DNA of 64,000 bases from Thermoanaerobaculaceae bacterium (GTDB lineage: Bacteria > Acidobacteriota > Thermoanaerobaculia > Multivoradales > UBA5704), in NCBI GenBank assembly GCA_963717295.1, contig OY970330.1:2117902-2181901 (forward strand), read 5' to 3'. This document shows, in pieces, positions 1 to 51,626 of the stretch (positions are counted from its first letter, which is position 1; each line of letters opens with the position of its first letter). Below the pieces are notes generated by a model. The model saw only the letters and a list, made by a program, of their open reading frames with translations. It was not told the origin of the DNA and made no database searches. The position numbers and the translations under genes were made by a program.

Positions 1-1080
1 CGAGAAGCTGACATTTCCCGCCGACCAGCGCTCCGGTTCGGGGAGCCATTCGAAGGCGTAGTCCGGGGGGCGAATCCCCTGTTCACCGGCGCGTCCCCAG
101 TCGAAGAACTCCTGCCAGCGCACCGCTTCGAGAAGCGCCTCCGCCGCCTCGCCGGCGCGCCTCGCGAGCGAGCTTCCGGGCGCGCTCCGGCCGGCGATCG
201 GCAAGTGGCGCGAGAGAGCCCCGAGCGCCTCCCGCAGCTCCGCATAGGCGCGGCCGTCGGCCAGGACGCCGACGACCACCCGGTCGCTCCCGGCGAGGCG
301 GCCGAGGAGAGCCTGCCAGACGGCCAGCAGGACCGCCTGCTCGGGAACCGCCAGCCGCCGGGCGGCGGCGGCGATCCGATCGGCGGTCCCGGCCGCGAGG
401 GCGACCAGCAGAACGCAGGGGGAGAAGCCGGCCGCGGGAGTCCGGAGGCCGGGCAGGGCCACCTCGGCCGCGAGCGCCTCCTGGAGATCGGGGGAGCTCC
501 AGCGTTGCGCGCCGACCGAGCCGCCCTCGCCTTCGAAGACCTCGTTCTGCCACTCGGCGATGTCGGCGTACTGCAACGGCCCCTCGTCCGCCGGCGGTCC
601 GTCCTGCCGGCCGTAGGCGTCGACGACCTCCCGCAACAGGTTGATCAGCCCGGGGCCATCGCTCGCCACCGCCGGCAGGGCGACGCCGAGCAGGTGCCGG
701 CCCGGTTCAGGGGAGACGAGGGCGGCGCGCAGCACCGGTCCGGCCGCCAGATCGAAGGGTTCGCGGCAAGCGGCGAGGAGCAGCTCTTCGCCCGCCTGGC
801 GAGCCTCCGGCCGGAGCAGGGAGAACTTCGCCTCCGGTTGGACCACCTGGAGGGGGATCGTCATTCCGGGTAGCGCGTGGAAGGTGGTGCGCAGGACTTC
901 ATGGCGCTCGATCGTCGCGGCGAACGCCGCGGCGAGACGGCCGGGCTCGAGCTCCCCGTCGATGCGCAGCATCGCCCAGGTCGTGAACGCCCCTTGGCCG
1001 AGCTCCGTCATCAGCGCCCAGAGGTGGCGCTGCTGCGGCGAGAGACGGGTGCCGGTCAGGGGCTTGCTCTGCATCGTCAT
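1..1080 (-). CDS. NRPS, N-terminal part (C-terminus outside window); begins with a condensation-like domain whose catalytic motif is degenerate
   Basis: My own reverse-complement translation from ATG at 1080-1078 gives an uninterrupted reading frame to position 1: MTMQSKPLTGTRLSPQQRHLWALMTE...IERHEVLRTTF... (C1 and C2 motifs present). The C3 position reads VALPAVASDGPG instead of MHHxxxDG. It is missing from the ORF track because it runs off the window edge. Confidence 0.8.
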   Translation of the reverse strand, partial: MTMQSKPLTGTRLSPQQRHLWALMTELGQGAFTTWAMLRIDGELEPGRLAAAFAATIERHEVLRTTFHALPGMTIPLQVVQPEAKFSLLRPEARQAGEELLLAACREPFDLAAGPVLRAALVSPEPGRHLLGVALPAVASDGPGLINLLREVVDAYGRQDGPPADEGPLQYADIAEWQNEVFEGEGGSVGAQRWSSPDLQEALAAEVALPGLRTPAAGFSPCVLLVALAAGTADRIAAAARRLAVPEQAVLLAVWQALLGRLAGSDRVVVGVLADGRAYAELREALGALSRHLPIAGRSAPGSSLARRAGEAAEALLEAVRWQEFFDWGRAGEQGIRPPDYAFEWLPEPERWSAGNVSFS

Positions 1081-1092
1081 CGTCGCGCCGCC

Positions 1093-4000
1093 TCAGCCCT
1101 TCTCCTGCCGCCGCTTGAGACCGGTCAAGCTCTGCCGCCGAGCCTGGAGCAGATCCTCCTCCTGAGTCCGCTGACGGACCGCCCAGGCGCCGGCCACCCC
1201 GGCCGCGAGATCGGCCAGGGACCTGCCGGGGTGCGCCTCCGCGAGCCGCAGGAGCGCTTCGAAGCCGGCCGCGAAGCGCTGGATCGTGGCCTCCTCGAAG
1301 AGGTCCGACTTGTATTCGAAAAAGCCGCGCATCCCCTCGGGCGTCTCTCTCATCTCGAGCTTCAGGTCGTGCCGCACGAGGCCGCTGTGGAGATCGATTC
1401 CCCGCATTCTCACTCCCGGCAGCTCCACGGCCGGCAGGGGGACGTTTTGGAGGACGAACCAGACCTGGAAGAGCGGGGTCCGGCTCACGCTACGCTCGGG
1501 CCGCAGAGCGTCGACCACCAGCTCGAACGGGGTGTCCTGATGCGCGAAGGCGCCGAGCGCCACCGCGCGCACCCGCCCGACCAACTCGGCGAAGGTCGGG
1601 TCGCCGCCCAGGTCCGTGCGCATCACCAGGGTGTTGACGAAGAACCCGATCAGCCCCTCGGTCTCGGCCCGGCGGCGGTTGGTGATCGGCGTGCCCACCG
1701 CGATGTCGTCCTGCCGCGAGTGCAGATGGAGAAGCAGCTGAAAACCGGCGAGGAGAACCATGAACAGGGTGGCATCGTGCTGGCGCGCCAAGGTGTTGAG
1801 CCCATCCCGCAGCTCCCTCGCGAGAGTGAAGTGGGACCGCGCTCCACGCGAGCTGGCCCCCTCGGGACCGAGAGGCCGGACCGGCAGGTCGGTGCGCCCC
1901 GGCGAGCCCCCGAGCTGGCGCTTCCAGTAGGCGAGCTGCCCGGCGAGCACCGGCCCGCGGAGCCAGGCCTGCTGCCAAGCCGCGAAATCGACGTACTGGA
2001 AGGCTGGCTCCGGCAGCGGCGAGGGCCGCCCGGCGGCGAAGGCGGCGTAGAGCGGCACCAGCTCGGTCACCAGGATGCCGCGCGACCAGGCATCGCTGAC
2101 GATGTGGTGCATGGTGAAGAGCACCAGGCAGTCGTCATCCTCGAGGTCGACCAGCGCGCACCGCAGCAGCGGCCCTTTCCCGAGATCGAAGGGGAGGGCC
2201 GCCTCGGCCCACGCGAGCCGTACGACCTCCTCCTCGCGCGCGGCCGGAAGCAAGCCGCGCAGGTCGACAACCGGCAGCGGGATGGGACGGGCCGGGGCGA
2301 TCCGCTGCCGCGGCTGGCCTGCGACCACCGGGAAGGTGGCGCGCAGCACTTCCTGCCGGCGCACGATCTCGGAGATCGCGAGCTCCAGGGCGCGCAAGTC
2401 GAACGCACCGCTCACCCGCACGGTCCCGAACACGTTGTAGGCCGGGTTTCCAGGCTCGAGCTGGTCGAGAAACCAGAGCCGAAGCTGCGGCGAGGAGAGC
2501 GGCAGCTCGCCGTTGCGAGGAATCCTGAGCAGGGGCGGCTCCTTCGTCACGGCCCGTCCGCGATCGCCGGGCTCCCCAAGGCCGACGGAGGCCGACGACG
2601 ACCGGCCGGCCGGCGGCGCCGACGCGGGCAGCGCGCCGCCGACCAGCGAGTGCATCAGCTCATGCCCCTCGTCGAGCGCGAAGAGAGGGCGGACGGCAGC
2701 GAAGCCGAGGCCGCCGATCGGACAGATCCCCAGCCCGCAGGCGGGAGCGCCGGCCCGCAGGAGCTGAAGCATCGCCCCGGCTTCGAGCAGGCAGAAATCC
2801 CGCGCGCGCTTTCCGTAGAGCGGCGCGATGGCTCCTGCCTGGGCGATCAGGAAGAGGGAGAAGGCGGAACGCTCGAAGATCGGACGGTTGATGAAATCGG
2901 CATGGATGCCGGGATCGAGCTCGACTCCGGGGGTGAGGGCGACGAGCCGGTGCTCGGCCGGATGGTAGTAGTAGGTCCCGGCCGGAATCCCCTCGACCCG
3001 CCCTGCCTTGACGTGCAAATAGACCTGCACGGGATAGACGCCACCCGCCGAGGGATAGAGGCGTTGCGGGTGATCGCCGGCCGGCAGCTCCCGCAAGCTG
3101 GCGAGGAACCTGCCGAAAGCCCGGTTGAGGATCGGCTCCGCGGCGAAGAACCGCTCGCTGCGGAGCTCCGGCGGTCCGGCGTCGCCTGCCTGCAGGTCGA
3201 GATGCCGGCGCGCGGGATCGGCCGGACGCAGGTCCAGCCGCCGCTCCTTGAAACGCTCGCGCTCTTCCGGATCGGCGACGCTCTCCGGAGACCAGCGCGA
3301 GGCCGCCTCGGGGACGGCCGTCTCCGGACGCTCCTGCGCGTAGAGCCTGGCGAGCCCGGCGACCGTCGGCGTCCGGAAGAACTCCTCCATCGTGGGCCGG
3401 AAGGACAGATCGCGCTCGAGCTGGTTGGAGATGCGAATGAGGTCGACCGAGTTCGCCCCCAGGTCGAGAAGGTTGGCATCCCACTCCACGCGGTCGAAAC
3501 CCAATACCCGTTCGACGATCTGGCGGATCGTTTCAGCCAGGGGAGACCCGGAGCTCGGGCCGCCCGGCACGGCTTCGTGGCGTTGAGTGAGGGGCGGCGG
3601 CAGGGCGCGGCGGTCGACCTTGCCGGTGGCCGACAGCGGCAGGGATTCCAGGAACACGTACGACGACGGCACCATGTAGGCCGGCAGCCTGCCCGCCAGG
3701 TAGGCGCGCAGGCTCTCCTCGCTCTCCTCGACTCCCGGCTCGCCGACCACATAGGCCACCAGGCGCTTGCTCCCCTGCGCCTCGCCCACCGCCGCCACCA
3801 CGCACGAACGCACCGCCACGTGCCGGGACAGCACCGACTCGATCTCCCCGAGCTCGATGCGGTAACCCTGCACCTTGACCTGGAAGTCCTCGCGGCCCAG
3901 GAACTCGATCGTCCCGTCCGGCAGGAAGCGCCCCAGATCCCCCGTCCGGTACAGACGCTCGCCCGTCCGCGGATGCACCAGGAAGCTCGCAGCCGTCCGC

Positions 4001-6678
4001 TCTTCCGCACCCCAGTAACCCCGCGCCACCCCGGCACCCCCAATGTACAGGTCGCCCGGCACCCAGGCCGGGCAGAGCGACAGCGCCTCGTTCAGCACGT
4101 ACATCCGCTGGTTCGACATCGCCCGCCCGTACGGGATGCTCCTCCACTGCGGCAGCACCGTCCCGATCGGGTAGAGGATCGACCAGATCGATCCCTCCGT
4201 CGCGCCCCCCAGGCTCACCACCTCCACCGCGCCCAGACGACGCGCCCGATCGGGCAGCGACAAGGGCAGCCAATCCCCCGACAGCAGCGCCAGACGAAGG
4301 CTCGGCGCCAGAGCGCTACTCCGCGACTCCGCCCAGTCCACCAGCACCTCGAACAACGCCGGCACCGAGTCCCACACCGTCACCCCATGCTCCAACATCA
4401 GCTCATGCCAGCGCCCGGGCTCGCGGGCCGCCCACGGCTCCGGCATCACCACCGCGCCACCCGCCGACAAAACGCCGAAAAGGTCGTACACCGACAGGTC
4501 GAACGACAGCGACGACAGCGCCAGAACCCGGTCCTCGGCGCCCAGACCGAAACGGCGATTGACGTCGGCCACCGTGTTGAGAGCCGCGCGGTGCTCGATC
4601 ATCACCCCCTTCGGCTCACCCGTCGAGCCCGAAGTGAAGATCACGTAGGCCAGGTCCGAGGGCGACTGCGCCGCCGCCAGAGGCGCCCCGGCCGGCTCCG
4701 GACCGTCCTCGACCAGCACCCGCTCGATGCCGGACGGCCAGTCCAGGACGGCGGCCAGGGAAGGCTGCGTCACCGCCACCCGCACACCCCCCAGCGAGAG
4801 CAGTTGGCGCAAGCGCTCACCCGGCACACCGGCCTCGATCGGCAGGTACGCTCCTCCCGACTCCAACACCCCCAGCACCCCCACCACCTGCTCCCACCCC
4901 TTCTCCATCACCACCGCCACCAACTCGTCCGGACGCACCGCGAGGTCCCGCAGGCGAAGCGCCAGAGATCGCGAACGCGCCGCCAACTCGCCGTAGGAGA
5001 GCATCCGCGACCCGGAGATCACCGCCGGCCGCCCCGGCGCCGACGCCGCCCGCGCCAGGAAACCCGAGTGCAGCAGCCCCTCCGGCAACGGCGCCGACGT
5101 CGCGTTGACCGACTCGATCAGCTCTCGATGCCGCGACGACGCCAGCGCCAGCGGCGGCTCCTCCCAAGCCCCCTCGTCTTGCGCCAGACGCTCCAGGAGC
5201 CCACGGTAGGCGGCGAACATCTCGTCCAGCAGGCCGGCCGGAAACAGATCCTCCACCGCGTCCCAGTTGAAACCGAGAGCGCCCCCCTCCTCCATGACCC
5301 GGTGGTCGAGCCACACCTGCGGGGTCTGCGAGATGCTGTAGACGTTGTCGGCCACCAGCAGGCTCGTCGTTTCAGCGGCCCCCTGCCCCTCCTGGCCGAG
5401 CGTGCTGGTGAACACCACCGGCATGCGCCCTCCCGCGGCGTTGCCGGCCCGCCGGGCGAGCTGGCGCAGAACCTTGACGCCGCTCACGTAGCTGTATTCG
5501 AGATCGCTCCAGAGCTGCTGCTGGAGGGTGCGAGCGCGCTGGCGGAAGGTGTTCGCCGTGACGTCGACGACGAGGAGCACCGTGGCCGAGAAGTCCCCCA
5601 TGATGGCGTTGACCTGCGGGTGGAGCGGCAGCCGGTTGAACAGCGTGAGGTTCAAGACGAACCGGGGGCTCTTGCACCAGGTGGCGAGGACGTTCGAGAA
5701 CGCCGCCAGCAGCAGGCCGGACGGGGTGAGCCCCTCGCGCCGGGCGGCGGCCTTGAGCGCTCCCCAACGCGCCGGATCGAGCCGCCCGAGGTGACGGGTG
5801 AAGACGGGCTGCTTGATGGTTCCAGGATCTCTTGCGAGCGGCAGTTGGGGCGGCCCCGGAAGGTTGGCCAGCCGACGCTCCCAATGCGCCTCCGCCTGCC
5901 GGTAGCGCTCGCCGCCATGGAGGGCCTTCTCCGCCAGCACGTAGTCGCGGAACGACAGTTCCAGCGAGGGCAGCTCGAGGGCTGGATCGCCGTAGAGCTT
6001 GAACAGCTCGCCGAAGAAAATCTGGAAGCTCCAGGCATCGCCGATCAGTAGATCGAGGCTCAGATGCAGGCGCGTGCGGCCCTCCTCGAAGCGGGAGGCA
6101 CGGATCTCGAACAGTGGCCAGCGATCGGTCGCGAGAACCTGATGCGAGAGCCGGTCGCGCAGCTCGCCCCGGCGGGCCTCGGCCGCGAGGGCCGGCACGC
6201 CGTGGAGCTCGAGCACCTCGATGCCGTAGCGCGGCACCTCCGGCAGGATGCGTTGCTGCCCGTCGTCGCCCACGATCATGCGCAGCATGCCGTGCCGTAG
6301 GATGAGCTGGTTCAGAGCCTGCTCCAGGCGCGCCAGATCGAGATCCTGGAAGTCGAGCTCCAGATAGAAATGCGGCGCCACGTTGCCGAGCTCGAAATCG
6401 CCGCGGCGCCCGATCCAGTAAGCCTGCTGGAGATCGGTCAGCGGGAAGGGGAGGTGCCGCTCGTGCGGCACCGGAACGATCCCCGGCAGGCTCGCGGCCC
6501 GCGTCCCCGGCTCGACCTCGAGCAGCGCCACGATCTCGGCCTTGCGCCGGCTGAGCTCGTCGCGCAGCACCGAGGTCAGCACTCCCTGGGGGGCGTTCAA
6601 GCGCAAGCGGCTTCCTTCGGTCCAGATCTGGACATCGAGGCCGCGCAGTTGAGCGACGAAATCGGCGGTCGACGTCAC
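1093..6678 (-). CDS. NRPS module Cy-A(Cys)-PCP-Ox-C (heterocyclization, adenylation, carrier, FMN oxidase, C-terminal condensation domain)
   Basis: Cy motifs FPLTDLQQAYWIGR and DLLIGDAWSF. A domain LAYVIFTSGSTGEPKGV with FDLSVYD (Stachelhaus D-L-Y) and SLGGATEGSIW, a Cys-type code. PCP LGANSVDLIRISNQL. Nitroreductase-like Ox (YPSAGGVYPVQVYL...GLGICPIGG). C domain with MHHIVSDAWS. Its start overlaps the upstream gene's stop by 4 bp. Confidence 0.9.
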   Translation of the reverse strand: MTSTADFVAQLRGLDVQIWTEGSRLRLNAPQGVLTSVLRDELSRRKAEIVALLEVEPGTRAASLPGIVPVPHERHLPFPLTDLQQAYWIGRRGDFELGNVAPHFYLELDFQDLDLARLEQALNQLILRHGMLRMIVGDDGQQRILPEVPRYGIEVLELHGVPALAAEARRGELRDRLSHQVLATDRWPLFEIRASRFEEGRTRLHLSLDLLIGDAWSFQIFFGELFKLYGDPALELPSLELSFRDYVLAEKALHGGERYRQAEAHWERRLANLPGPPQLPLARDPGTIKQPVFTRHLGRLDPARWGALKAAARREGLTPSGLLLAAFSNVLATWCKSPRFVLNLTLFNRLPLHPQVNAIMGDFSATVLLVVDVTANTFRQRARTLQQQLWSDLEYSYVSGVKVLRQLARRAGNAAGGRMPVVFTSTLGQEGQGAAETTSLLVADNVYSISQTPQVWLDHRVMEEGGALGFNWDAVEDLFPAGLLDEMFAAYRGLLERLAQDEGAWEEPPLALASSRHRELIESVNATSAPLPEGLLHSGFLARAASAPGRPAVISGSRMLSYGELAARSRSLALRLRDLAVRPDELVAVVMEKGWEQVVGVLGVLESGGAYLPIEAGVPGERLRQLLSLGGVRVAVTQPSLAAVLDWPSGIERVLVEDGPEPAGAPLAAAQSPSDLAYVIFTSGSTGEPKGVMIEHRAALNTVADVNRRFGLGAEDRVLALSSLSFDLSVYDLFGVLSAGGAVVMPEPWAAREPGRWHELMLEHGVTVWDSVPALFEVLVDWAESRSSALAPSLRLALLSGDWLPLSLPDRARRLGAVEVVSLGGATEGSIWSILYPIGTVLPQWRSIPYGRAMSNQRMYVLNEALSLCPAWVPGDLYIGGAGVARGYWGAEERTAASFLVHPRTGERLYRTGDLGRFLPDGTIEFLGREDFQVKVQGYRIELGEIESVLSRHVAVRSCVVAAVGEAQGSKRLVAYVVGEPGVEESEESLRAYLAGRLPAYMVPSSYVFLESLPLSATGKVDRRALPPPLTQRHEAVPGGPSSGSPLAETIRQIVERVLGFDRVEWDANLLDLGANSVDLIRISNQLERDLSFRPTMEEFFRTPTVAGLARLYAQERPETAVPEAASRWSPESVADPEERERFKERRLDLRPADPARRHLDLQAGDAGPPELRSERFFAAEPILNRAFGRFLASLRELPAGDHPQRLYPSAGGVYPVQVYLHVKAGRVEGIPAGTYYYHPAEHRLVALTPGVELDPGIHADFINRPIFERSAFSLFLIAQAGAIAPLYGKRARDFCLLEAGAMLQLLRAGAPACGLGICPIGGLGFAAVRPLFALDEGHELMHSLVGGALPASAPPAGRSSSASVGLGEPGDRGRAVTKEPPLLRIPRNGELPLSSPQLRLWFLDQLEPGNPAYNVFGTVRVSGAFDLRALELAISEIVRRQEVLRATFPVVAGQPRQRIAPARPIPLPVVDLRGLLPAAREEEVVRLAWAEAALPFDLGKGPLLRCALVDLEDDDCLVLFTMHHIVSDAWSRGILVTELVPLYAAFAAGRPSPLPEPAFQYVDFAAWQQAWLRGPVLAGQLAYWKRQLGGSPGRTDLPVRPLGPEGASSRGARSHFTLARELRDGLNTLARQHDATLFMVLLAGFQLLLHLHSRQDDIAVGTPITNRRRAETEGLIGFFVNTLVMRTDLGGDPTFAELVGRVRAVALGAFAHQDTPFELVVDALRPERSVSRTPLFQVWFVLQNVPLPAVELPGVRMRGIDLHSGLVRHDLKLEMRETPEGMRGFFEYKSDLFEEATIQRFAAGFEALLRLAEAHPGRSLADLAAGVAGAWAVRQRTQEEDLLQARRQSLTGLKRRQEKG

Positions 6679-9600
6679 AGCTCGATGTCCTCCCGCGGCC
6701 CCTCGCCGGCGGACCCCGCGGGCTCCTCCTGGAAGGGCTCCCAGGCGGCCGACGCCCCGATGCGCCCGCCGAGCAGCGAATGGAGCGGAACGTGGGTGTC
6801 GGCGAGGGCGAAGTGATGGCGGACGCGCGCGAAGTCGACGGCGCCGATCGGACAGAGGCCGATCTCGCAGGCCGGCGCCGCGAGCATCAGCAGTTGCCCC
6901 ATGTAGCCCGCTTCGAGGAGGCTGAAGTCACGGCCCGCGCGGCCGTACATCGGCGCCACCGCCTGGGCCTCGGCGATCAGGAAGAGCGCGAAGGCCGCCT
7001 CGTCGTAAATCGGGCGGTTGATGAACTCGACGTAGATGCCGGGATCGATCTCCGCGCCCGGCGCCAGGGCGACCAACCGGTGAGCGGCCGGATGGTGGTA
7101 GTAGACGCCCCCCTCCAGTCCCTCGACCCGCCCAGCCTTCGCGTAGAGATAGGTCTGGACCGGGTAGAGCCCGCCGGCTGACGGGTAGAGCCGCCGCTCG
7201 CCATCGGGCTCGGCGATCCGGCGGAGCACTCCCAGCAGGCTGGCGAGATCCTGCCGGGGGATTGGCTCGGGACTGAAACGGCGATAGCTGCGGCGGGTTG
7301 CGAGGAGCGCCGCGAGAGCTCCTTGCCCGTCGCCGGGCACCGCGAGGTCGAGGCTCCGCGTTCCGGACGCGTCCGCGCGGAGCCCCAAGTCGCGCTCCTT
7401 GAACGCCGCGCGCTCCGCCGGATCGAGCAGCAGCCCGAAGCGTGTCCAGGCGGACTCGACGGGATCGACCGGCGCGCTCACCGGGGCCGGCGGGGGCGCG
7501 GCCAGGCGTGCCTCGTAGTAGCCCACGACGCTCCGCGGCGTCGAGAGGCGGAACAGCTCGTCGATCGTGGGGCGTGAGCCGAACTCGATCTCGAGCAGAT
7601 TGGCCACCCGGACCATCTCGATCGATGTCGCACCGAGATCGAAAAGGAGGACGTCGGGGTCGAGGAGCTCGGTCTTGAGCACGGAACCGATCACCGCGTA
7701 GACCCGCTCGGCGAGGTTGGAGCCGCCGGGCTGAGCGCCCGGCACGGCTTCGTGGCGTTGAACGAGGGGCGGCGGCAGGGCGCGGCGATCGACCTTGCCG
7801 GTGGCCGACAGCGGCAGGGATTCCAGGAACACGTACGACGACGGCACCATGTAGGCCGGCAGCTTGCCCGCCAGGTAGGCGCGCAGGCTCTCCTCGCTCT
7901 CCTCGACTCCCGGCTCGCCGACCACATAGGCCACCAGGCGCTTGCTCCCCTGCGCCTCGCCCACCGCCACCACCACGCATGAACGCACCGCCACGTGCCG
8001 GGACAGCACCGACTCGATCTCCCCGAGCTCGATGCGGTAACCCTGCACCTTGACCTGGAAGTCCTCGCGGCCCAGGAACTCGATCGTCCCGTCCGGCAGG
8101 AAGCACCCCAGATCCCCCGTCCGGTACAGACGCTCGCCCGTCCGCGGATGCACCAGGAAGCTCGCAGCCGTCCGCTCTTCCGCACCCCAGTAACCCCGCG
8201 CCACCCCGGCACCCCCAATGTACAGGTCGCCCGGCACCCAGGCCGGGCAGAGCGACAGCGCCTCGTTCAGCACGTACATCCGCTGGTTCGACATCGCCCG
8301 CCCGTACGGGATGCTCCTCCACTGCGGCAGCACCGTCCCGATCGGGTAGAGGATCGACCAGATCGATCCCTCCGTCGCGCCCCCCAGGCTCACCACCTCC
8401 ACCGCGCCCAGACGACGCGCCCGATCGGGCAGCGACAAGGGCAGCCAATCCCCCGACAGCAGCGCCAGACGAAGGCTCGGCGCCAGAGCGCTACTCCGCG
8501 ACTCCGCCCAGTCCACCAGCACCTCGAACAACGCCGGCACCGAGTCCCACACCGTCACCCCATGCTCCAACATCAGCTCGTGCCAGCGCCCGGGCTCGCG
8601 GGCCGCCCACGGCTCCGGCATCACCACCGCGCCACCCGCCGACAGAACGCCGAAAAGGTCGTACACCGACAGGTCGAACGACAGCGACGACAGCGCCAGA
8701 ACCCGGTCCTCGGCGCCCAGACCGAAACGGCGATTGACGTCGGCCACCGTGTTGAGAGCCGCGCGGTGCTCGATCATCACCCCCTTCGGCTCACCCGTCG
8801 AGCCCGAAGTGAAGATCACGTAGGCCAGGTCCGAGGGCGACTGCGCCGCCGCCAGCGGCGCCCCGGCCGGCTCCGGGCCGTCCTCTACCAGCACCCGCTC
8901 GATGCCGGACGGCCAGTCCAGGACGGCGGCCAGGGACGGCTGCGTCACCGCCACCCGCACACCCCCCAGCGAGAGCAGTTGGCGCAAGCGCTCACCCGGC
9001 ACACCAGCCTCGATCGGCAGGTACGCTCCTCCCGACTCCAACACCCCCAGCACCCCCACCACCTGCTCCCACCCCTTCTCCATCACCACCGCCACCAACT
9101 CGTCCGGACGCACCGCGAGGTCCCGCAGGCGAAGCGCCAGAGATCGCGAACGCGCCGCCAACTCGCCGTAGGAGAGCATCCGCGACCCGGAGATCACCGC
9201 CGGCCGCCCCGGCGCCGACGCCGCCCGCGCCAGGAAACCCGAGTGCAGCAGCCCCTCCGGCAACGGCGCCGACGTCGCGTTGACCGACTCGATCAGCTCC
9301 CGATGCCGCGACGGCGCCAGCGCCAGCGGCGGCTCCTCCCAAGCCCCCTCGTCTTGCGCCAGACGCTCCAGGAGCCCACGGTAGGCGGCGAACATCTCGT
9401 CCAGCAGGCCAACCGGGAACAGATCCTCCACCGCGTCCCAGTTGAAACCGAGAGCGCCCCCCTCCTCCATGACCTGATGGTCGAGCCACACCTGCGGGGT
9501 CTGCGAGATGCTGTAGACGCTCTCGACCGTCAGAGCGTCGATGTCCCCCGTGGCCCCCTGCCCCTCCTGGCCGAGCGTGCTGGTGAACACCACCGGCATG

Positions 9601-10766
9601 CGGGCTCCCGCTCCGTCGCCCCGAACGCGAGCGAGCTCGCGCAGCAACTGCACGCCGCTCATGTAGCTGTGCTCGAGATCCCGCCAGAGCTGCTCCTGAA
9701 TCTCGCGGAGCGTCTGCCGGAGGGGCGCCGCCAGGTCGACATCGACCGCAAGCAGGTTGAGAGAGGTGAAGTCGCCGACCACCTGATTGACCTCGGGGTG
9801 GAGAGGCAGGCGGTTGAACAGTGTGAGATTCAAGGTGAAGCGTGGGCTCCGGCTCCAGGTGGCGAGCACCGTCGCGTAGATCCCGAGCAACAGGCCGGAG
9901 GGAGTCAGGCCGAGATGAGTGGCCCGCGTCTTGAGGCGCGACCAGCGCCCGGCATCCAGGGTGGCGCGCCGGCGCGCGAAGCGGGGATCGGCGAGCGCGG
10001 CGCCGCCGCTGCGCTCCAGCGGCAACTGAGGCGATGGCGGGAGCTCGGCCAGGCGCGCCCGCCAGTACTCCAGGGAACGCCGGTGAGGCTCGGAGTTACG
10101 GAGCGCCCGCTCGGCGAGCACGTAGTCGCGGAAAGAGAGCTCGAGCGGCGCCATGTCGGCCGCGGGATCCTGATAGAAGACCGCGAGATCGCCCAGCAGC
10201 AGCCGGAAGCTCCAAAGGTCCGCGATCATGATGTCGAAGCTGAAGTGCAAGCGGACCTTGCCGCCGTCGAGCAGCGAGGCCCGGATCTCGAACAGCGGCC
10301 AGCGGTCGGCGGGAAGCACCTGGTGCGACAGCTCTTCCCGCATCGCGGCGAGGTGCGCCGCGGCCTCCCGCGGATCCCGGCCGCGCAGGTCGGTCGCCGG
10401 CACCGTGAACGGCGGCACCTCGGGGAGGATCCGTTGTGACCCGTCCGCCAGGAAAACCGCGCGCAGCATGTCGTGGCGATCGATCAGCCGGCGCCAGGCC
10501 TGCTCGAAGCGGACGATGTCCAACTCCCCGCTTTCGAACTCCATATAGCTGTGGGCCGAGACGTGGCCCAGCTCGATCCCGCTCTGACGTCCGATCCAGT
10601 AGGCCTGCTGGATGTCGGTCAATGGGAACGGCAGATGCCGATCGCCGGGCGCCGGCACGACTTGCGAAAAACGGCCGCCGTCGGACGGCTTCCTGCCCAG
10701 CCGTTGGGTCAGCAATCTCAGCTTCTCGGGAGAGAGCTCCGCGATACGACCTGAGAGGTCAGTCAT
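6675..10766 (-). CDS. NRPS module Cy-A(Cys)-PCP-Ox (thiazole-forming)
   Basis: Cy motifs FPLTDIQQAYWIGR and DIMIADLWSF. The A domain is near-identical to that of 1093..6678 (DLY / SLGGATE Cys code). PCP FDLGATSIEMVRVANLL. C-terminal SagB/McbC-like FMN oxidase (YPSAGGLYPVQTYL...EIGLCPIGA). 4-bp overlaps with both neighbouring genes. Confidence 0.9.
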   Translation of the reverse strand: MTDLSGRIAELSPEKLRLLTQRLGRKPSDGGRFSQVVPAPGDRHLPFPLTDIQQAYWIGRQSGIELGHVSAHSYMEFESGELDIVRFEQAWRRLIDRHDMLRAVFLADGSQRILPEVPPFTVPATDLRGRDPREAAAHLAAMREELSHQVLPADRWPLFEIRASLLDGGKVRLHFSFDIMIADLWSFRLLLGDLAVFYQDPAADMAPLELSFRDYVLAERALRNSEPHRRSLEYWRARLAELPPSPQLPLERSGGAALADPRFARRRATLDAGRWSRLKTRATHLGLTPSGLLLGIYATVLATWSRSPRFTLNLTLFNRLPLHPEVNQVVGDFTSLNLLAVDVDLAAPLRQTLREIQEQLWRDLEHSYMSGVQLLRELARVRGDGAGARMPVVFTSTLGQEGQGATGDIDALTVESVYSISQTPQVWLDHQVMEEGGALGFNWDAVEDLFPVGLLDEMFAAYRGLLERLAQDEGAWEEPPLALAPSRHRELIESVNATSAPLPEGLLHSGFLARAASAPGRPAVISGSRMLSYGELAARSRSLALRLRDLAVRPDELVAVVMEKGWEQVVGVLGVLESGGAYLPIEAGVPGERLRQLLSLGGVRVAVTQPSLAAVLDWPSGIERVLVEDGPEPAGAPLAAAQSPSDLAYVIFTSGSTGEPKGVMIEHRAALNTVADVNRRFGLGAEDRVLALSSLSFDLSVYDLFGVLSAGGAVVMPEPWAAREPGRWHELMLEHGVTVWDSVPALFEVLVDWAESRSSALAPSLRLALLSGDWLPLSLPDRARRLGAVEVVSLGGATEGSIWSILYPIGTVLPQWRSIPYGRAMSNQRMYVLNEALSLCPAWVPGDLYIGGAGVARGYWGAEERTAASFLVHPRTGERLYRTGDLGCFLPDGTIEFLGREDFQVKVQGYRIELGEIESVLSRHVAVRSCVVVAVGEAQGSKRLVAYVVGEPGVEESEESLRAYLAGKLPAYMVPSSYVFLESLPLSATGKVDRRALPPPLVQRHEAVPGAQPGGSNLAERVYAVIGSVLKTELLDPDVLLFDLGATSIEMVRVANLLEIEFGSRPTIDELFRLSTPRSVVGYYEARLAAPPPAPVSAPVDPVESAWTRFGLLLDPAERAAFKERDLGLRADASGTRSLDLAVPGDGQGALAALLATRRSYRRFSPEPIPRQDLASLLGVLRRIAEPDGERRLYPSAGGLYPVQTYLYAKAGRVEGLEGGVYYHHPAAHRLVALAPGAEIDPGIYVEFINRPIYDEAAFALFLIAEAQAVAPMYGRAGRDFSLLEAGYMGQLLMLAAPACEIGLCPIGAVDFARVRHHFALADTHVPLHSLLGGRIGASAAWEPFQEEPAGSAGEGPREDIEL

Positions 10767-13700
10767 AGGGCTCCGTTTCCTTCGGCATAGGCCGGGTCCT
10801 CGAGCTCCGCCAGCACCTCGAGAAGCTCCGCATTGTCGACCTGGTCGGTGATCAGATGGACGATCAGCTTCGCCAGCTCCGCGATCGTCGCGCCGACGAA
10901 GAGGCGGCTGAGCGGCACCTCGATCTGCAGCGTCTCGCGCAACCGCGAGGCCAGGTCGATCGCCAGCAGCGAATGCCCGCCGAGCTCGAAGAAGTTGTCA
11001 TGGACTCCGATCTGCTCGATGCCCAGCATCTCTTCCCAAAGGCCGGCCAGCATCTGCTCGAGCTCGCTCGACGGCGCTCGATAGGAGACCCCGACGTTGG
11101 GGCGCGGATGCCGGGTTCCTGGCGCGGCGGCTCCGGTGCGCCGGCCGGCCTCGCCGGCGCTCGCCGGCGGCCGCGCCTGCTCGCGGATCAGGGTCTCGAG
11201 GTCGACGCCCGAGACGACGATCTGCGGCCCGGCACCGCTGGCCAGGGCGCGCGCGAAGGCCTCGATCCCCTCGGCCGGCCGGATGGCGCGGCCGGTCACC
11301 GGCCCTTCGGCGGCCGGCCGGTCCGTTGCGGCGGCGGCGCGCGGCGGCGTGGCGACGTCGACCTTGCGAGCGGTGAACTCCTCGACTTCGACCAGCACCT
11401 CTCCGCTCTCGGTCAGCAGGGCGATCTCGAGCACCGCCGTATCCCCGGCCGAGAGGGCTGCGTCGACGCGAAAGTGCGCCAGCAGGCGCCGCGTGAGCGG
11501 CGCGTGCTGCCGCAGCCGCCCGTAGGAGAGCGGCAGGTAGCCCGCACGGCCGGTGAGCAGCAGACCGCACGCCGTAGCGACGTCGAGCAGCGCCGGATGC
11601 AGCCCGAAGACAGCGAGATCGCCGGCGAATGCCGGCGGCAGCTCGAGGACCGCCAATCCCTCGCCGTCGCCGACGCAGCCCTCGCGCAGCACGTCCCAGC
11701 GCGGCCCCCAGAGAGTCAGCTTCCCGCCCGCCCGCCGCTCCACCGGCAAGTCGACCACCGCGCAGCGCGCGCGAATTGCCGCCGGCTCCCGGCGCGCCGG
11801 CGCCGGACCGTCGAAGGGGAGGGCGCGGCCGGTGGCGTGAAGCCGCCAGCCTTCCCCCTTTCCATCGCGGCTGGTAATCCTGAAGGTCAGCTCCCCCGCG
11901 TGCTCGGCGAGCGCCGTGCGCACCTCCGCCTCCTCCCCCTCATCGACCGCCAGGGGGGAGAGAAAGACCGCCTCCCGCAGCTCGACGCCGGTCCCGGGCC
12001 GCTGCGCGGCTACGGCGGCCCGCGCCATTTCGAGGAGCGCCGTGCCGGGGAGGACGGGACGGCCCATCAGCCGGTGCTCGGCGAGCACCCAGTGGCGAGC
12101 TGGGGAGAGACGGAGAGCCGTCTCCATGCCGCCCCCCTCGCCGAGCAGCGGGCTCGACTCGAGGGAGGGCGCCCCCGGACGCTCCGGGCGCGCGCCGAGC
12201 GACATGCCGGTACCCTCCCAGCCATACCAGTCGAGCGCGAGAACGCTCGGCCCGCCGCGGGCCGAGCGCCAATGGGCGAAGGCGTCCAGGAAGGCATTGG
12301 CGGCGACATAGTCGACGCGCCCCAGGCCGCCGGTGATCCCGAAGGTCGACGAGAACAGGGCGAAGAAGTCGAGCGACTCACCGGCGAGCAAGGCATCGAG
12401 CACCAGAACGCCCTTGACCTTGGGGTCCAGCACAGGGCTCATCCTCTCCGCGGTCTGGCGCAGGAGCAGGCCGCCTCCCGCCGCGCCCGCGGCATGAAGA
12501 ACGCCGTGGAGGGGACCGAATCGCCGCCTGGCCTCGGTCAGGACGGCGCCCAGGGCCGCCTCGTCCGTGACGTCGGCGCTCGCCACCATGACCTCGGCGC
12601 CGGCGGCCTCGAGCTCGAGGAGCTGCCGCACCTGCTCGCCCAACGGGCCTGGGTCGTCCTGCCAGAGAGGCCAATCCCCGCGGGGCGGGAAAGCGGAACG
12701 GCCGACTAGGACCAGCCGCGCCGCGAGCTCACGCGCGAGGTATCCCGCGAAGATGAGGCCGAGCCCACCCATACCGCCCGTGATCAGGTAGGTCCCACGT
12801 TGCCGGAACGGCGGCCGCTCCGCGGCGGGGAGAGGCGCGGGCTCGAACGTCTGCACCCAACGATGGGGCCCGCGCAGGGCCACCGGCGCCCCGGGGTCGA
12901 GAGCCGAGAGCTCGGCAAGCAGCCGCGCGGCACCGGCCTCCTCCCCTCTGCCCGGTGCGGGCGAAACCACGTCGATCACCCGGCAAGCCAGCCCAGGCAG
13001 CTCCTGCGGTATGACCTTGGCGGGACCGAGCACCAGCGCCGCGGCCGGCGAGAGGGGCTCGCTCCCGTCCACGTCGAACAGTCCGCTCACCACCACGCTG
13101 AGCGCCACCCGCGCCTCCCCGCTCCGCCCCGCCAGGGCTTGGGCGAGATGCAGGAGACTGTAGAAACCGAGCGTCTCGAGCTCTTCGACAGCCTCCCGAT
13201 CGGCCCTCCCCGCCGCCTTGGCACCCGTCGCCCAGAGGTGGACGATGCGAACCAGCGCCCCACCCGCCAGCGGGAGCTCGCCGAGCAGCGCCTGGTAATC
13301 CTCCAGCCGGCGCGGGGAAAGCTCATAGGCGCCCTCGCCACGGCGGGCGAAGGCCACGCCGGGAGCCACGGTCACCACCGCCTCGCCGCGTTTTGCGAGC
13401 TCGTTGGCGAGATCACCGCCGAGACCGCCGCCGGACACGAAGAGCAGCCAGAGGCCACCCCCACCGGTGGCCAGTGCCGGCGCCGGCCGCGGCAGCCGCT
13501 TCCATGACGGGACATAGAACCAATCCGCCAGATCGGATTTGCGGCCGGCCGGGGCGGGAGCATTCGCCGGCGCGGCGGCGGCCTTTCTCTCCACCCAAAA
13601 GCGGCGGCGCTCGAAAGCGTAGGTTGGCAGCGGCACCCGGCGTCGCGACACCGGCCCTTGGAAGGCCTTCCACTCGGGCTCTACGCCGTTGGTCCAGAGC

Positions 13701-16253
13701 CGTCCGAGGGCGTTGAGCAGGGCCCGCTGCTCTTCTCCGGGCTCCCGGCTCTCGGGGAGCGAGGCCACCACCGGCCAGGCGGTGGGCACGGCGGGGTGGT
13801 TGCGCGCCAGGGTGAGCAGGGTACGCCCCGGACCGACCTCGAGCAGCGCCGCGTGCTCGAGTGTCGCGAGTGTCGCGAGGCCGGCCGAGAAGCGGACAGG
13901 GTGGCGCAGGTGGCTGACCCAATAGGCGGGGTCGGTGGCTTCCTCGGGCCGGATCCAGGCGCCGGTGAGGTTCGACACCCAGGGCAGCTGCGGGGACCGC
14001 AGGCGGATGCGGGCGAGCTCCTGGCGGAACGGCTCGAGGATCGGCTCCATCATCGCGGAGTGGAAAGCGTGCGAGGTGCGCAGACGCCGGCACCGGACCC
14101 CCCGTCCGGAAAGCGTCGCGGCGAGCTCCTCGAGGGCGTCGACGGGGCCGGAAACCGTCGACAGCAAAGGCGCGTTCTCGGCGGCCAGAGAGAGCCGGCC
14201 GCCGAGCAGCGCAGCCACCTCGGCGGCGGGGAGCGGTACGCTCAGCATGCCGCCCGGAGGCAACCGCTGCATGAGGCGTCCGCGCGCCGCGACCAGCGCC
14301 AGCGCATCCTCCAGCGAGAGCGTGCCGCCCAGGCAGGCCGCCACGTACTCGCCCACGCTGTGCCCGAGCATCGCCCGGGGCCGCACCCCCCAGGCGATCC
14401 ACTGCTCCGCGAGCGCGTACTCGACGGCGAACAGGGCGGGCTGCGCGAGCTCGGTCTCCTCGAGACGGGCGGCGGCGTCCGCGGCGTTCGACCCGTCAGA
14501 CCCCGCGCCGGGCTTCAGAAGCCGCCGCAGGTCGAACCCCAGCGATGGAGTGAGGATCTCGGAGCAGCGGTCGAAAGCCGCGCGGAAGACGGCCTCGCCA
14601 GGATAGAGGCCGCTCCCCATCTCCAGGTACTGCGCCCCCTGGCCGGGGAAGAGGAAAACGACCGGCGTGCCGGCCTCGCCGCCGATGCCTTCGATCACCC
14701 GCTTCGGATCGAGCGCGGTGAGCGCCGCCGTCGCCTCGGCGCCGCTCGCGCAAACCACCGCTCGGCGGTGCGCGAAGGCGGAGCGCCCCACCTGCAAGGT
14801 CCAGGCGACGTCGGCCAGAGCGAGCTCTGGGAGGGCGCGCAGATGCTCGGCCAGCCGATCGCTGTTGGCGGCGAGGGCACCGGCGGTCTTGCCCGAGGTC
14901 ACGAGGAGCTGCAGCGGCCGGACGGCCGGGGCGGTGGGCGCGGCGGACGGCGCCTCCTCGAGGACGACATGGGCGTTGGTTCCGCCGATCCCGAAGGAGC
15001 TGACACCGGCGCGCCGCACTCCCTTCCCGGCCGGCCACGGCCGCAGCCCGGCGTTGACGAAGAATGGGCTGGCATCGAAGTCGATCTCGGGGTTCGGGCG
15101 CTCGAAGTGGAGGCTCGGCGGCAGCCAGCCGTGCCGCAGCGCGAGCACGGTCTTGATGAGGCCGGCGATACCGGCCGCGGCGTCCAGGTGCCCGATACCG
15201 GTCTTGACCGATCCCAGGGCGCAGAAACCGCGCTTCTCCGTGCTCGCCCGGAAGACGTGGGTGAGCGCGCTCACCTCGATCGGGTCGCCGAGCGGTGTGC
15301 CGGTGCCGTGCGCCTCGATGTAGCTGATCGACTCGGGGTCGACCTCGGCCATGTCGAGCGCCTCGGTGAGGACGGCGATCTGGCCGGCGGAGCCGGGTGC
15401 CGTGTAGCCCGCCTTCAAGGAGCCGTCGTTATTGACCGCCGAGCCGCGAAGGACGGCGAGAATCGTGTCGTTGTCGGCCAGCGCTTCGTCCAGACGCTTC
15501 AGGACGACGAGACCCAGGCCGCTGCCGAAGACGGTTCCGCCGGCGCGGCTGTCGAAAGCACGGCAGTGCCCGTCGGGCGACAGGATTCCGCCCGGCTCAT
15601 ACAGATAGCCGCCGCGTCCCGGCGGCTTGACGGAGGCGCCCCCCGCCAAGGCGAGGTCGCACTGGAAGTCGAGCAGCGCCTGGGAGGCCAGGTGAACGGC
15701 GACCAGCGAGGTCGAGCAGGCCGTCTGGACTCCGATGCTCGGCCCCTTCAAGCCCAGCTTGTAGGAGATCCGCGTGCTCAAGTAGTCCTTGTCGGCGGCG
15801 ACCGTGAGCTGCAGCGACGACACCGATCGCACGAGATCCGGGTCCGACAGGATGTTCCGCAGCAGGTAGTGATTGATGCCGCAGCCGGCATAGACACCGA
15901 TCGAGCCCGGGAAGCGCGAGGACACGTAGCCGGCGTTCTCGAGCGCCTCCCAGGCGCACTCGAGGAGGAGACGGTGCTGGGGGTCGGTCAGCTCCGCCTC
16001 ACGCGGGTTGATGTCGAAGAACTCGGCGTCGAACAGCTCGACGCCGTCGATCCGTGACTCTGCCCGCACGAAATGGGGGTCACGCAGCCGGTCGGGCTCG
16101 ACCCCTGCCTGGGCCGCCTCGTCCTCCGACAGGAACGTGATCGCTTCGACCCCGTCCTTGAGGTTCTGCCAGAACTGGTCGAGCGTCGGCGCCCCGGGGA
16201 AACGCCCCGACATGCCGATCACCGCCACGGCGGGCGCGGAGCGGGGGGCCGTC

Positions 16254-16267
<14 letters not shown>
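10763..16267 (-). CDS. Type I PKS module KS-AT(malonyl)-KR-DH-ACP
   Basis: KS motifs GVQTACSTSLVAVHLA, EAHGTGT, GSVKTGIGHLD. AT GHSVGEY plus HAFHS (malonyl signature). KR Rossmann GTYLITGGMGGLGL with YVAANAFLD. Hotdog DH motif HRLMGRPVLPG located after the KR. ACP LGGHSLLAIDL. Confidence 0.9.
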
Positions 16268-38222
<21,955 letters not shown>

Positions 38223-38302
38223 GGAATATTCCTGTAATGCGATCCATAAATTTCACAGATCGCCTTAAAACTGCTTCGCTTAATCCTCACCGATCTTGGG
38301 AG

Positions 38303-38332
38303 AGTATATCTTTTAGTTTGACGAGCTGTCAA
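38303..38332 (-). promoter_or_regulatory. Near-consensus sigma70-type promoter for the megasynthetase operon
   Basis: Minus strand reads TTGACA-18 nt-TATACT, about 75 nt upstream of the TTG start. It sits in a ~190-bp AT-rich block (38223..38413) in a ~70% GC context. The -35 lies inside the palindrome TTGACgagctGTCAA. Confidence 0.4.
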
Positions 38333-38413
38333 TTCTCCGTGCCGTCAGTTAATTAATTGATCTTTGCTTTATTGCGCGCAATATATAAATAGAAACATTA
38401 TGGCCCTGACCCA

Positions 38414-38450
38414 CTGATTCGTAATCAGCAGGTCATCGGTTCAAATCCGA
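38414..38450 (+). repeat. 37-nt direct repeat of the 3' half (anticodon stem to T-arm) of the downstream tRNA-Thr; att-like remnant
   Basis: CTGATTCGTAATCAGCAGGTCATCGGTTCAAATCCGA matches tRNA positions 28-64 with one mismatch. No D-arm or acceptor stem is present. Confidence 0.5.
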
Positions 38451-38683
38451 AAGTCCCCGCCGAACCGGTCCTTCTCCTTGCCGCTCGGCAAGCGGCCGGG
38501 AACCCGAAACGCTGGGGCCGTCTGGCCGGCATTCTCCGCTCGCGGCCCACCAACGCTTCCCTCTGGAGGAGCTCAAGAGGAGCGGTCGCCGTCCTGCCGA
38601 GGCACCCGCCGCGGGGCCTCTGATCCGCCATCCCGCGAGCGAGCCCGGACGGTGGCGGTCCTGAGGCAGGCAGGCATCGCAGG

Positions 38684-38712
38684 TTGCCTTGCGGAGTCCG
38701 TTGCCCTACAAT
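38684..38712 (+). promoter_or_regulatory. Putative sigma70 promoter of tRNA-Thr
   Basis: TTGCCT-17 nt-TACAAT, about 40 nt upstream of the mature tRNA 5' end. Confidence 0.35.
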
Positions 38713-38751
38713 ACGCCTCCGCTTGCGTAGACCAGCCTGGGTCTCCGTTCA

Positions 38752-38826
38752 GCCGACGTAGCTCAGGGGTAGAGCAGCTGATTCGTAATCAGCAGGTCGT
38801 CGGTTCAAATCCGACCGTCGGCTCCA
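38752..38826 (+). tRNA. tRNA-Thr (anticodon CGU), CCA encoded
   Basis: Manual cloverleaf: acceptor GCCGACG/CGTCGGC, D-arm GCTC-AGGGGTA-GAGC, anticodon arm GCTGA-TTCGTAA-TCAGC (anticodon CGT), T-arm GTCGG-TTCAAAT-CCGAC, discriminator T plus CCA. 75 nt. Confidence 0.85.
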
Positions 38827-45745: not shown

Positions 45746-45825
45746 GAGATAGGATAAACCCTTACGATGCTAGACCTTTCAACCAACCCGATCTGCAGGC
45801 TGGACGCTGCCACGATCGAGCCGCC

Positions 45826-46518
45826 ATGAACACGGCAACCCGGCTGGTCTCCTCGCTCGGCTACGCCCTCTGGCGCCCCGTCCTGCGCCGGCGGCTGGGC
45901 CGCGTCTCGCTCGAAGAGATCGACGGCGTAGTTCTCATGGTGCTTCCCGAGGTCTTCAATCCGGCCGTCTATCGCACGGGCACGCTGCTGGCCCAGGCGG
46001 TCGCGGCGTGGACGCCTCCCGACGTCAGGCATTGTGAGGACATCCGGGTCCTCGACGTGGGAACGGGCAGCGGGGTCGGCTCGGTGTTCGCCGCCCGGCG
46101 GGGATTTCGGGCCGTGGCGGTAGACGTCAATCCCGAGGCGGTACGGTGCGCCCGGATCAACGCCCTTCTCCACCACCTGGAAGAACGGATCGACGTGCGG
46201 CAGGGCGACCTCTTCTCCCCGGTGGCCGGCGAGCGCTTCGATCTCGTGCTGTTCAATCCCCCCTTCTTTCGCGGCGAGCCAGCGGGCGATCTCGATCGGG
46301 CCTGGCGCGGCACGGATGTGCTGGAGCGCTTCGCCGCCGGCCTTCCCGAGGCCTTGAATCCGGACGGCACCGCTCTCCTCTGCCTGTCGACCGATGGCGA
46401 CGGCGACGCTCTGCTCGCCCGGCTGAGAGACGGCGGGTTCGGGATCGAGACGGCTGTCCAGCAAGACTTCGCCAATGAGATCGTCACCGTCCACGCGGTG
46501 CGAAGGACGGCGGCGTGA
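45826..46518 (+). CDS. Class I SAM-dependent methyltransferase (HemK/PrmC-like, NPPF motif)
   Basis: VLDVGTGSGVGSVFAA (motif I) and DLVLFNPPFF. 4-bp overlap with the next gene. Confidence 0.7.
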   Translation: MNTATRLVSSLGYALWRPVLRRRLGRVSLEEIDGVVLMVLPEVFNPAVYRTGTLLAQAVAAWTPPDVRHCEDIRVLDVGTGSGVGSVFAARRGFRAVAVDVNPEAVRCARINALLHHLEERIDVRQGDLFSPVAGERFDLVLFNPPFFRGEPAGDLDRAWRGTDVLERFAAGLPEALNPDGTALLCLSTDGDGDALLARLRDGGFGIETAVQQDFANEIVTVHAVRRTAA

Positions 46519-48020: not shown

Positions 48021-48063
48021 TCCTGACCGGCGAATCCGCCGGAAACACGACACCGCTCCCCCC

Positions 48064-48262
48064 CAATGTAGAGACGCCCGGAGGGTAGCGCCAGCTACCC
48101 CGTGGGGCGTCTCCCGTCGGAGGCATTCCGTCAAAATACGTGAAAGATCTGAAGACCGAAAACCTTGTCTGGTCCAGGCCGTTCAGAAAACGGGGATGGC
48201 GATCCTTCGCCGGAGACGCCCCACGGGGTAGCTGGCGCTACCCTCCGGGCGTCTCTACATTG
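48064..48262. mobile_element. MITE-like element copy 1 (199 bp, 51-bp perfect terminal inverted repeats)
   Basis: TIR CAATGTAGAGACGCCCGGAGGGTAGCGCCAGCTACCCCGTGGGGCGTCTCC, inverted at the other end, around a ~97-bp core. An ~85%-identical second copy lies at 51356..51554. Flank similarity extends to ~48050..48295. Confidence 0.7.
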
Positions 48263-48284
48263 GCTGCGGTCGGCCTCCGGGATT

Positions 48285-48641: not shown

Positions 48642-48691
48642 CTCGGATGATCCCTCCTGGAAAAGGATATTTTAAGTTATCTTCGGAATCC

Positions 48692-51325: not shown

Positions 51326-51355
51326 TCTTGCACCCTCGCCGATACCGCTCCCCCT

Positions 51356-51554
51356 CAATGTAGAGACGCCCGGAGGGTAGCGCCAGCTACCCCGTGGGGC
51401 GTCTCCGGCGGAGACATGATCTCAAAATTACGTGGAAGATCTGAAGACCGAAAGCCCTATCTGGTCCAGACCGTTCAGAAAACGGGGATAACGATCCTTC
51501 GCCGGAGACGCCCCACGGGGTAGCTGGCGCTACCCTCCGGGCGTCTCTACATTG
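51356..51554. mobile_element. MITE-like element copy 2 (199 bp), same orientation as copy 1
   Basis: 51-bp TIRs identical to copy 1. The core is ~85% identical. Flank similarity extends to ~51342..51632 with a ~45-bp insertion in the right flank. Confidence 0.7.
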
Positions 51555-51626
51555 GCTGGCGGCGACATGGTGTCTCGTGGCATTACACCCGACGGGTCAA
51601 AACTGGCGGTCGGCCTCCAGATAATT

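Follow-up and report, generated by a model that had tools for sequence, protein, structure and literature searches.

The question raised by this locus is how two neighbouring nonribosomal peptide synthetase (NRPS) genes came to share one almost identical segment within otherwise diverged sequence. The genes lie in a window of 64,000 nucleotides (the whole stretch of DNA analysed here) from contig OY970330.1 of a Thermoanaerobaculaceae bacterium of the phylum Acidobacteriota. According to Pfam, the downstream gene (1093..6678, reverse strand, 1861 aa) encodes a TubC_N docking domain followed by Cy, A(Cys), PCP, Ox (nitroreductase family) and C domains; the upstream gene (6675..10766, reverse strand, 1363 aa) encodes Cy, A(Cys), PCP and Ox, as read from Pfam and the coordinates of the open reading frame (ORF). 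A thiazole module is expected to combine a condensation domain of the heterocyclisation type, an A domain coding for Cys, a carrier and an FMN oxidase; the families Condensation, AMP-binding, PP-binding and Nitroreductase were found in both genes, which are predicted to encode thiazole-forming NRPS modules of the type Cy-A(Cys)-PCP-Ox. We propose, with a probability of roughly 0.85, that the shared tract results from recurrent gene conversion of the A(Cys) cassette between two anciently duplicated adjacent modules, and that it is a skewed tract of the type described as GRINS, genetic repeats marked by intense nucleotide skews. Its identity is mosaic, its synonymous divergence (dS) has collapsed, its phylogeny is incongruent with that of the flanks, its strand composition is skewed, and the same tract is present in a 97.6% identical relative.

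The repeat consists of two direct copies at an offset of exactly 4175 bp. Copy 1 (3561..5349, reverse strand) belongs to the downstream module and copy 2 (7736..9524, reverse strand) to the upstream module, the probable recipient of the conversion. Ungapped comparison and blastn gave 23 mismatches and no indels over this core of 1789 bp (98.7% identity); the longest run free of mismatches measures 474 bp (3931-4404), and in 150-nt windows identity is at least 0.80 across about 3560-5450. At the protein level the tract covers residues 444-1040 of the 1861-aa product and 415-1011 of the 1363-aa product, starts with VYSISQTPQVWLDH, ends with QRHEAVPG and differs at nine positions, the 23 nucleotide differences being mostly synonymous. 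Its coding content begins with the last ~55 aa of Cy, runs through the Cy-A linker and the complete A domain with both Acore and Asub, and stops ~15 aa into the A-PCP linker. No other pair of sequences with more than 80% identity over more than 500 bp occurs in the whole 64-kb window.

The tract is sharply bounded, with identity shifting within about 50-150 bp at its edges. Outside it, the same two modules share 30-67% of amino acids and 50-75% of nucleotides, and third-position identity falls to ~0.4-0.6. Values of dS (Nei-Gojobori) are 0.029 in the tract and 0.87-1.06 in the N-terminal part of Cy, the PCP and the Ox domain, a contrast for which neither chance nor conservation or selection at the protein level can account. 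On the Cy side the core is followed, after a divergent patch of 27 bp (5350-5376 in copy 1), by a shoulder of intermediate identity (75-93%, dS 0.39) at 5377..5545, with its partner of the same identity and dS at 9552..9720 (both on the reverse strand); this shoulder probably records a conversion that is older or was partly repaired. The original prediction, made from the sequence alone, had described a near-identical direct repeat of ~1.9 kb, pairs of spurious sub-ORFs at a constant offset of 4175 bp and diverged Cy N-terminal, PCP and Ox flanks around a Cy-A(Cys) segment, and each of these points is confirmed by the alignments, the ORF coordinates and the domain assignments.

One difference between the copies stands apart. 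The upstream copy has a Cys codon (TGC) at 8103-8105, partner of 3928-3930 and residue 888 of the 1363-aa protein, in place of Arg in the motif TGDLGR directly after core motif A7. The Arg is invariant in the 12 other aligned sequences (the downstream copy and 11 homologues), and the exchange may represent a damaging mutation after conversion or a sequencing error.

The strand composition of the tract was absent from the earlier description and is a new observation. Skews were calculated on the coding strand in 150-nt windows with a step of 30 nt, as in the paper on GRINS (Nivina et al. 2021, PMC8256042), which requires of these elements a length of more than 500 bp, more than 80% identity to a second site in the cluster, and mean absolute values above 0.15 for both GC and TA skew; it reports that the asymmetry peaks at third codon positions and goes along with gene conversion. 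Mean absolute GC skew amounts to 0.222 in copy 1 and 0.224 in copy 2, and mean absolute TA skew to 0.261 and 0.256, respectively. The corresponding ranges are 0.056-0.090 and 0.115-0.181 in the flanking domains, the neighbouring polyketide synthase (PKS) gene and the 7322-aa NRPS of the same cluster, with a mean absolute GC skew of 0.075 in the PKS gene. None of 940 other 1789-bp windows in 1093..38222 had both skews above 0.15. With 1789 bp at 98.7% identity, both skews above 0.15 and recoding at third positions, the tract lies on the GRINS side of every formal threshold.

The coding strand is rich in G and T at synonymous sites, in a block that lies exactly over each copy. Third codon positions have a skew (GC3 skew) of +0.36 to +0.37 within the tract, reaching +0.70 in local bins of 60 codons, and of about 0 elsewhere. 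Four-fold degenerate sites of the tract have a G/(G+C) of 0.75, whereas the flanks, the PKS gene, the large NRPS and the other A domains taken together lie at 0.47-0.53 (Fisher p 1e-15 to 1e-20). For T/(T+A) the values are 0.86 and 0.61-0.67, respectively. All eight four-fold codon families are shifted and the amino-acid composition is barely altered. Identity and GC skew are co-extensive (r=0.77), and the GC and GC3 contents of the tract equal those of the flanks, so that the difference is confined to the skew.

Three other sources of the skew were considered and rejected. Amino-acid composition is ruled out as the cause, given that the shift extends to every four-fold family and that amino-acid usage is near that of other A domains. 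A general trait of Cys-activating A domains is ruled out by a median mean absolute GC skew of 0.084 in 36 high-GC homologues and by the unskewed third Cys A domain of the cluster itself. An explanation by G-quadruplexes or G-runs draws on 33 runs of three or more G per kb in the tract versus 15-21 elsewhere, but each copy contains only one canonical G-quadruplex motif, against a mean of 2.1 in mononucleotide shuffles, and thus no excess over composition.

Short skewed patches occur also at the Asub ends of two A domains of the large NRPS, at 23838-24209 (module 5) and 26997-27347 (module 4), both on the reverse strand. Their GC skew is 0.21 and their GC3 skew 0.41 and 0.25, respectively, and the first resembles the Asub portion of the tract at ~74% identity. 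Such patches could be skew elements in decay or in formation, though they remain under the thresholds of 500 bp and 80%.

The age of the module pair was assessed from metagenomic homologues of the downstream protein (P0095, P0096 and P0116; 54-55% identity, same architecture) and their loci L081-L084; among references with one genome per species no close relative was found, the best being 45-59% identical. In all four loci a Cy-A-PCP-Ox module stands ahead of a dock-Cy-A-PCP-Ox-C protein, at a spacing of 4169-4232 bp, and the two modules are uniformly 71-72% identical along Cy-A, with no homogenised block. The comparison with relatives that had been suggested in search of a single-thiazole ancestor returned both modules in every locus. 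Neighbour-joining trees with 200 bootstraps were calculated separately for the N-terminal part of Cy, the tract, the PCP and the Ox domain. In the Cy tree the downstream module of the window groups with the downstream modules of the relatives (91%) and not with its own neighbour. In the tract tree the two window copies are sisters (100%), nested in the downstream-type clade (84%), which makes the downstream module the likely donor and the upstream module the likely recipient. The Ox tree places both window copies among the downstream modules (98%), a sign that an earlier exchange may have taken place, and the PCP tree gave no firm grouping. Since the relatives carry both modules and the flanks partly group by position, the module pair is much older than the homogenisation. 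The earlier alternative of a recent duplication or gene conversion is accordingly narrowed: gene conversion stands, and a recent tandem duplication conflicts with the mosaic identity and with relatives that carry both modules. Nor is the idea upheld that the event generated the bithiazole pair, as both modules predate the homogenisation and the substrate prediction is unchanged by it.

The skew, too, has a history beyond the window. The A-core of the downstream type is skewed in L084 (11372-13129) and in L081 (8573-10315), with strong GC3 skews of +0.25 to +0.59 over the part that corresponds to the tract, and in the 22-26 kb examined per locus neither has a second copy above 80% identity. The upstream-type A domains of the relatives are unskewed.

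A much closer relative was found in a metagenome scan. Contig Ga0134121_10000118 (L094) matches the window from 20775 to 8604 with 97.6% identity over 12.2 kb and ends inside copy 2 of the tract, of which it covers 921 bp, corresponding to residues 415-721 of the upstream copy only. Its tract is skewed like that of the window and is joined to an upstream-type Cy. Over the 921 bp it shares 96.1% with the upstream and 95.8% with the downstream copy, compared with 98.4% between the window's own copies; outside the tract L094 and the window share 98.1-98.2%. The excess of orthologous divergence in the tract over the flanks is significant (Fisher p=0.0014). At 30 sites the window copies agree and L094 differs, and at the 15 sites that differ between the window copies L094 has the upstream allele at nine and the downstream allele at six, in interleaved order. 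Because the upstream copy of L094 is ~96% identical to the downstream copy of the window, the homogenised tract predates the split of the two lineages. The paralogues of the window are nevertheless closer to each other than to their orthologue, which is the signature of concerted evolution continuing after that split. A further fragment, P0241, matches the PCP-Ox-C part of the downstream protein at 95% identity and begins within the tract, at the equivalent of residue 814 in the 1861-aa protein (residues 814-1040, downstream copy only); its protein has six residues unlike both window copies, the same pattern as in L094. The end of L094 and the start of P0241 both fall inside the repeat, as expected of short-read assemblies, and these breaks imply that the relatives have two near-identical copies too.

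The proposed mechanism is as follows. Two adjacent and ancient Cy-A-PCP-Ox modules would retain one near-identical cassette by recurrent non-reciprocal homologous recombination, that is, by concerted evolution, presumably through a RecA-type process. The cassette exchanged would run from the end of Cy through the Cy-A linker and across the entire cysteine-activating A domain, and in the window the A domain of the downstream module would have overwritten that of the upstream one. As cysteine would be exchanged for cysteine, the process is expected to be neutral with respect to specificity and to leave the substrate prediction as it was. The skew may have preceded the conversion and favoured it: the single-copy skew in L081 and L084 would fit the idea of a skewed substrate put forward in the GRINS paper as well as the donor direction derived from the trees. 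We tentatively extend this to a stronger version, which we hold to be possible though rather doubtful, in which the skew is an old, maintained trait of the downstream-type A lineage and the skewed domain acts as a 'seed' that repeatedly and directionally overwrites its unskewed neighbour. If true, the seed reading would make the succession suggested for the GRINS life cycle, skew first and conversion second, readable from relatives in a natural setting beyond Streptomyces and beyond PKS domains.

Several observations weigh against the conversion reading or parts of it. A raised local mutation rate could be behind the excess orthologous divergence of the tract. The set of 23 differences is taken from the assembly and may be inexact. 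The donor direction and the positional orthology of the modules depend on relatives that are 54-66% identical and on neighbour-joining bootstraps of 84-91%, and the Cy and PCP of the upstream module group with the upstream modules of the relatives at just 31-49%. The downstream A domain of L083 is without skew. The TA-skew threshold discriminates poorly, given that unrepeated parts of the cluster already reach 0.12-0.18, and it is the GC skew that discriminates. Finally, GC and TA skews correlate with r about 0.7 across all GRINS windows (PMC8256042), a typical feature outside the formal definition, whereas in the tract both skews are positive throughout and r is +0.14 within it and +0.28 across both genes.

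Of the other explanations, the one that survives best is still improbable: a skewed segment comprising the Cy end and the A domain would have been acquired horizontally into both modules, and the skew would be that of the donor genome. The composition of the tract at synonymous sites is indeed unlike the rest of the cluster, and the biosynthetic gene cluster (BGC) occupies a variable region beside a tRNA-Thr gene; a relative with 90-93% identity in the syntenic DNA lacks it at the corresponding locus. A foreign origin, however, is hard to reconcile with GC and GC3 contents equal to those of the flanks, with the nesting of the tract in the clade formed by downstream-type A domains from this cluster family, or with the skewed A-cores of that clade in L081 and L084, and a single conversion is more parsimonious than two insertions that share identical in-frame end-points.

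We consider it somewhat less probable again that the copies are in reality less alike and were collapsed, expanded or cross-polished during assembly. Repeats of this kind do break assemblies, as L094 and P0241 illustrate, and a warning about assembly errors was given for the clbJ/clbK repeat in the colibactin paper (PMC8209727). Against this, each copy sits in frame, flanked by a Cy and a PCP-Ox that are distinct in the two modules, both ORFs are intact, each module needs an A domain, and the differences in the core are mostly synonymous. The kinase encoded in the window has a 100% identical counterpart in the database, recorded on a contig of 8.78 Mb, a length that points to a chromosome-scale assembly, and in the independent relative L094 the same skewed sequence is attached to an upstream-type Cy. 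The weakest proposal, that a recent tandem duplication of a ~4.2-kb Cy-A module segment made the second thiazole module, agrees with the direct orientation, the constant offset and the very high identity of the tract but is very unlikely, as it predicts uniform identity over the duplicated unit and its junction, in place of Cy-N, PCP and Ox at dS 0.87-1.06, and has to contend with relatives carrying both modules at a uniform ~72%, with the grouping of the downstream Cy with its counterparts in the relatives (91%), and with a TubC_N docking and a terminal C domain that are in the downstream gene and not in the upstream one.

Gene conversion between old modules thus remains the preferred explanation, and its setting is a large assembly line. 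The gene at 6675..10766 overlaps both of its neighbours by 4 nt, which suggests an operon. Upstream of it, and likewise on the reverse strand, a PKS module with the domains KS-AT-KR-DH-ACP (10763..16267, Pfam) feeds both thiazole modules, and a 7322-aa protein (16254..38222), an NRPS and no PKS, scanned with Pfam as two halves and resolved further by domain mapping, contains FAAL-ACP, five C-A-PCP modules and a final Cy-A(Ox embedded)-PCP. At the other end the start of a next NRPS gene (1..1083, reverse strand; C domain by translation and Pfam Condensation) runs off the window, so that the assembly line continues beyond it. The third heterocyclisation module (especially 16395-20309) is arranged as Cy-A-Ox-A'-PCP, unlike the Cy-A-PCP-Ox layout of the repeat-bearing modules. 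Its Cys-type A domain (17547-18929) is 61% identical to the tract at the amino-acid and ~74% at the nucleotide level; it is neither homogenised nor skewed (GC3 skew +0.02).

Both copies of the tract have the specificity code DLYDLSLIWK, which matches at nine of ten positions the DLYNLSLIWK of most relatives; we take the latter to be the canonical Cys code and number its positions after GrsA. The upstream and downstream A domains of the relatives both have DLYNLSLIWK-like codes. At position 278 (4369-4371 and 8544-8546) Asp is present in both copies and Asn in most relatives; Asp also occurs in the upstream module of L083. Because both A domains share the same Cys-like code, the predicted product, a bithiazole-containing lipopeptide-polyketide, would be unchanged by the conversion. 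No characterised product could be assigned to the cluster, and exact look-ups of the 1363-aa protein, P0121 and P0241 returned no record.

Directly upstream of the NRPS start are a low-GC dip (0.49-0.58, 38000-38750) and a tRNA-Thr(CGT) gene (38752-38826, forward strand), and the tRNA region is 96% conserved but inverted in the relative L085. This locus, which encodes a 92% identical kinase, was rejected as a relative of the cluster, since it shares with the window only 45825-51558 (90-93% DNA identity) and has no BGC; being syntenic and yet without the whole BGC, it indicates that the cluster lies in a variable, island-like region. The Ser/Thr kinase gene is flanked by two 92% identical copies (48063-48262 and 51356-51555) of a palindromic element of ~200 bp with terminal inverted repeats of ~50 bp. 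The element folds as single-stranded DNA with -91 kcal/mol (z = -16), has a further copy in L085 (12689-12875) and looks like a miniature inverted-repeat transposable element. Four B12-binding radical-SAM genes, one SPASM radical-SAM gene and methyltransferase genes are located at 51627-58655 (reverse strand) and also at 45826-48020 (forward strand). The radical-SAM cluster is not in the syntenic part of L085 beyond 51.6 kb and may be a separate cluster for methylation or for a ribosomally synthesised and post-translationally modified peptide.

The repeat has consequences for the stability of the assembly line. Homologous codons share the same phase in both copies, so that unequal recombination across the 1.8-kb direct repeat would delete 4175 bp in frame or duplicate the module. 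The deletion would yield an 1832-aa Cy-A-PCP-Ox-C protein with one thiazole fewer. The suggestion that the tract is a hotspot for deletion and misassembly is plausible in the light of the breaks in L094 and P0241 and of the clbJ/clbK precedent. For genome mining the repeat is a predictable break point and, by comparison with the clbJK fusion, a plausible source of mono-, bi- and tri-thiazole variants. For engineering, the segment comprising the Cy C-terminus, the linker and the whole A domain would be an exchange unit tolerated in nature, working with two carrier domains that share only 36% identity.

The closest functional analogue is the clbJ/clbK repeat of colibactin in E. coli, which is a different compositional phenomenon. 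A repeat of 1480 bp has been reported there, with a recurrent deletion of 5651 bp that leads to an in-frame clbJK fusion in 12 of 109 strains (PMC8209727). In CFT073 we located this repeat with a length of about 1480 bp, its copies 5653 bp apart and each lying in the A domain of a thiazole-forming module. Both systems thus have a near-identical direct repeat in the A domains of two consecutive thiazole-forming NRPS modules. The clb repeat, however, has a mean absolute GC skew of 0.12 and a mean absolute TA skew of 0.07-0.09, similar to the rest of clbJ/clbK, and is ruled out as a second GRINS, being unskewed; conversely, no deletion variant of the present cluster was seen.

Recombination between A-domain segments within one NRPS cluster of a genome is likewise known from microcystin synthetase, where an A domain was replaced between mcyB1 and mcyC (PMC2174460), and natural NRPS recombination mostly swaps Acore and leaves the C-A linker and Asub in their native form (Baunach et al. 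2021, PMC8097286). Those events change specificity; the unit in the window is larger, including the Cy C-terminus, the linker, Acore and Asub, and its exchange would be neutral in this respect.

With GRINS the tract shares the properties of an intra-cluster repeat of more than 500 bp and more than 80% identity, with skews above 0.15, synonymous recoding and an association with conversion. It departs from the typical case in residing in an NRPS A domain and not in a PKS domain, and it has two copies only. GRINS have been found in 'some' NRPS modules, their enrichment in biosynthetic clusters is reported for Streptomyces only (PMC8256042), and Acidobacteriota, the phylum of the present host, are unmentioned in the main text of that paper. 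The kinase of the window is 76-82% identical to proteins from metagenome-assembled genomes of Thermoanaerobaculia. Among the other repeats above 80% in the loci fetched here, only one clearly passes both skew thresholds: an NRPS from an Acidobacteriota metagenome-assembled genome (L030) contains copies at 22028-24773 and 25172-27917 (2746 bp, 100% identity, offset 3144 bp) with mean absolute GC and TA skews of 0.169 and 0.165; this repeat extends to the end of the locus and may be an assembly artefact. The tract of the window is a new example of a known process, GRINS-type concerted evolution, and not a new kind of element, and it extends skewed conversion tracts of this type to an NRPS A domain in Acidobacteriota. 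A skewed single copy has been proposed as the substrate for later conversion, with the order of skew and conversion left open (PMC8256042); together with its single-copy skewed homologues, the cluster described here is a small system in which that order can be addressed.

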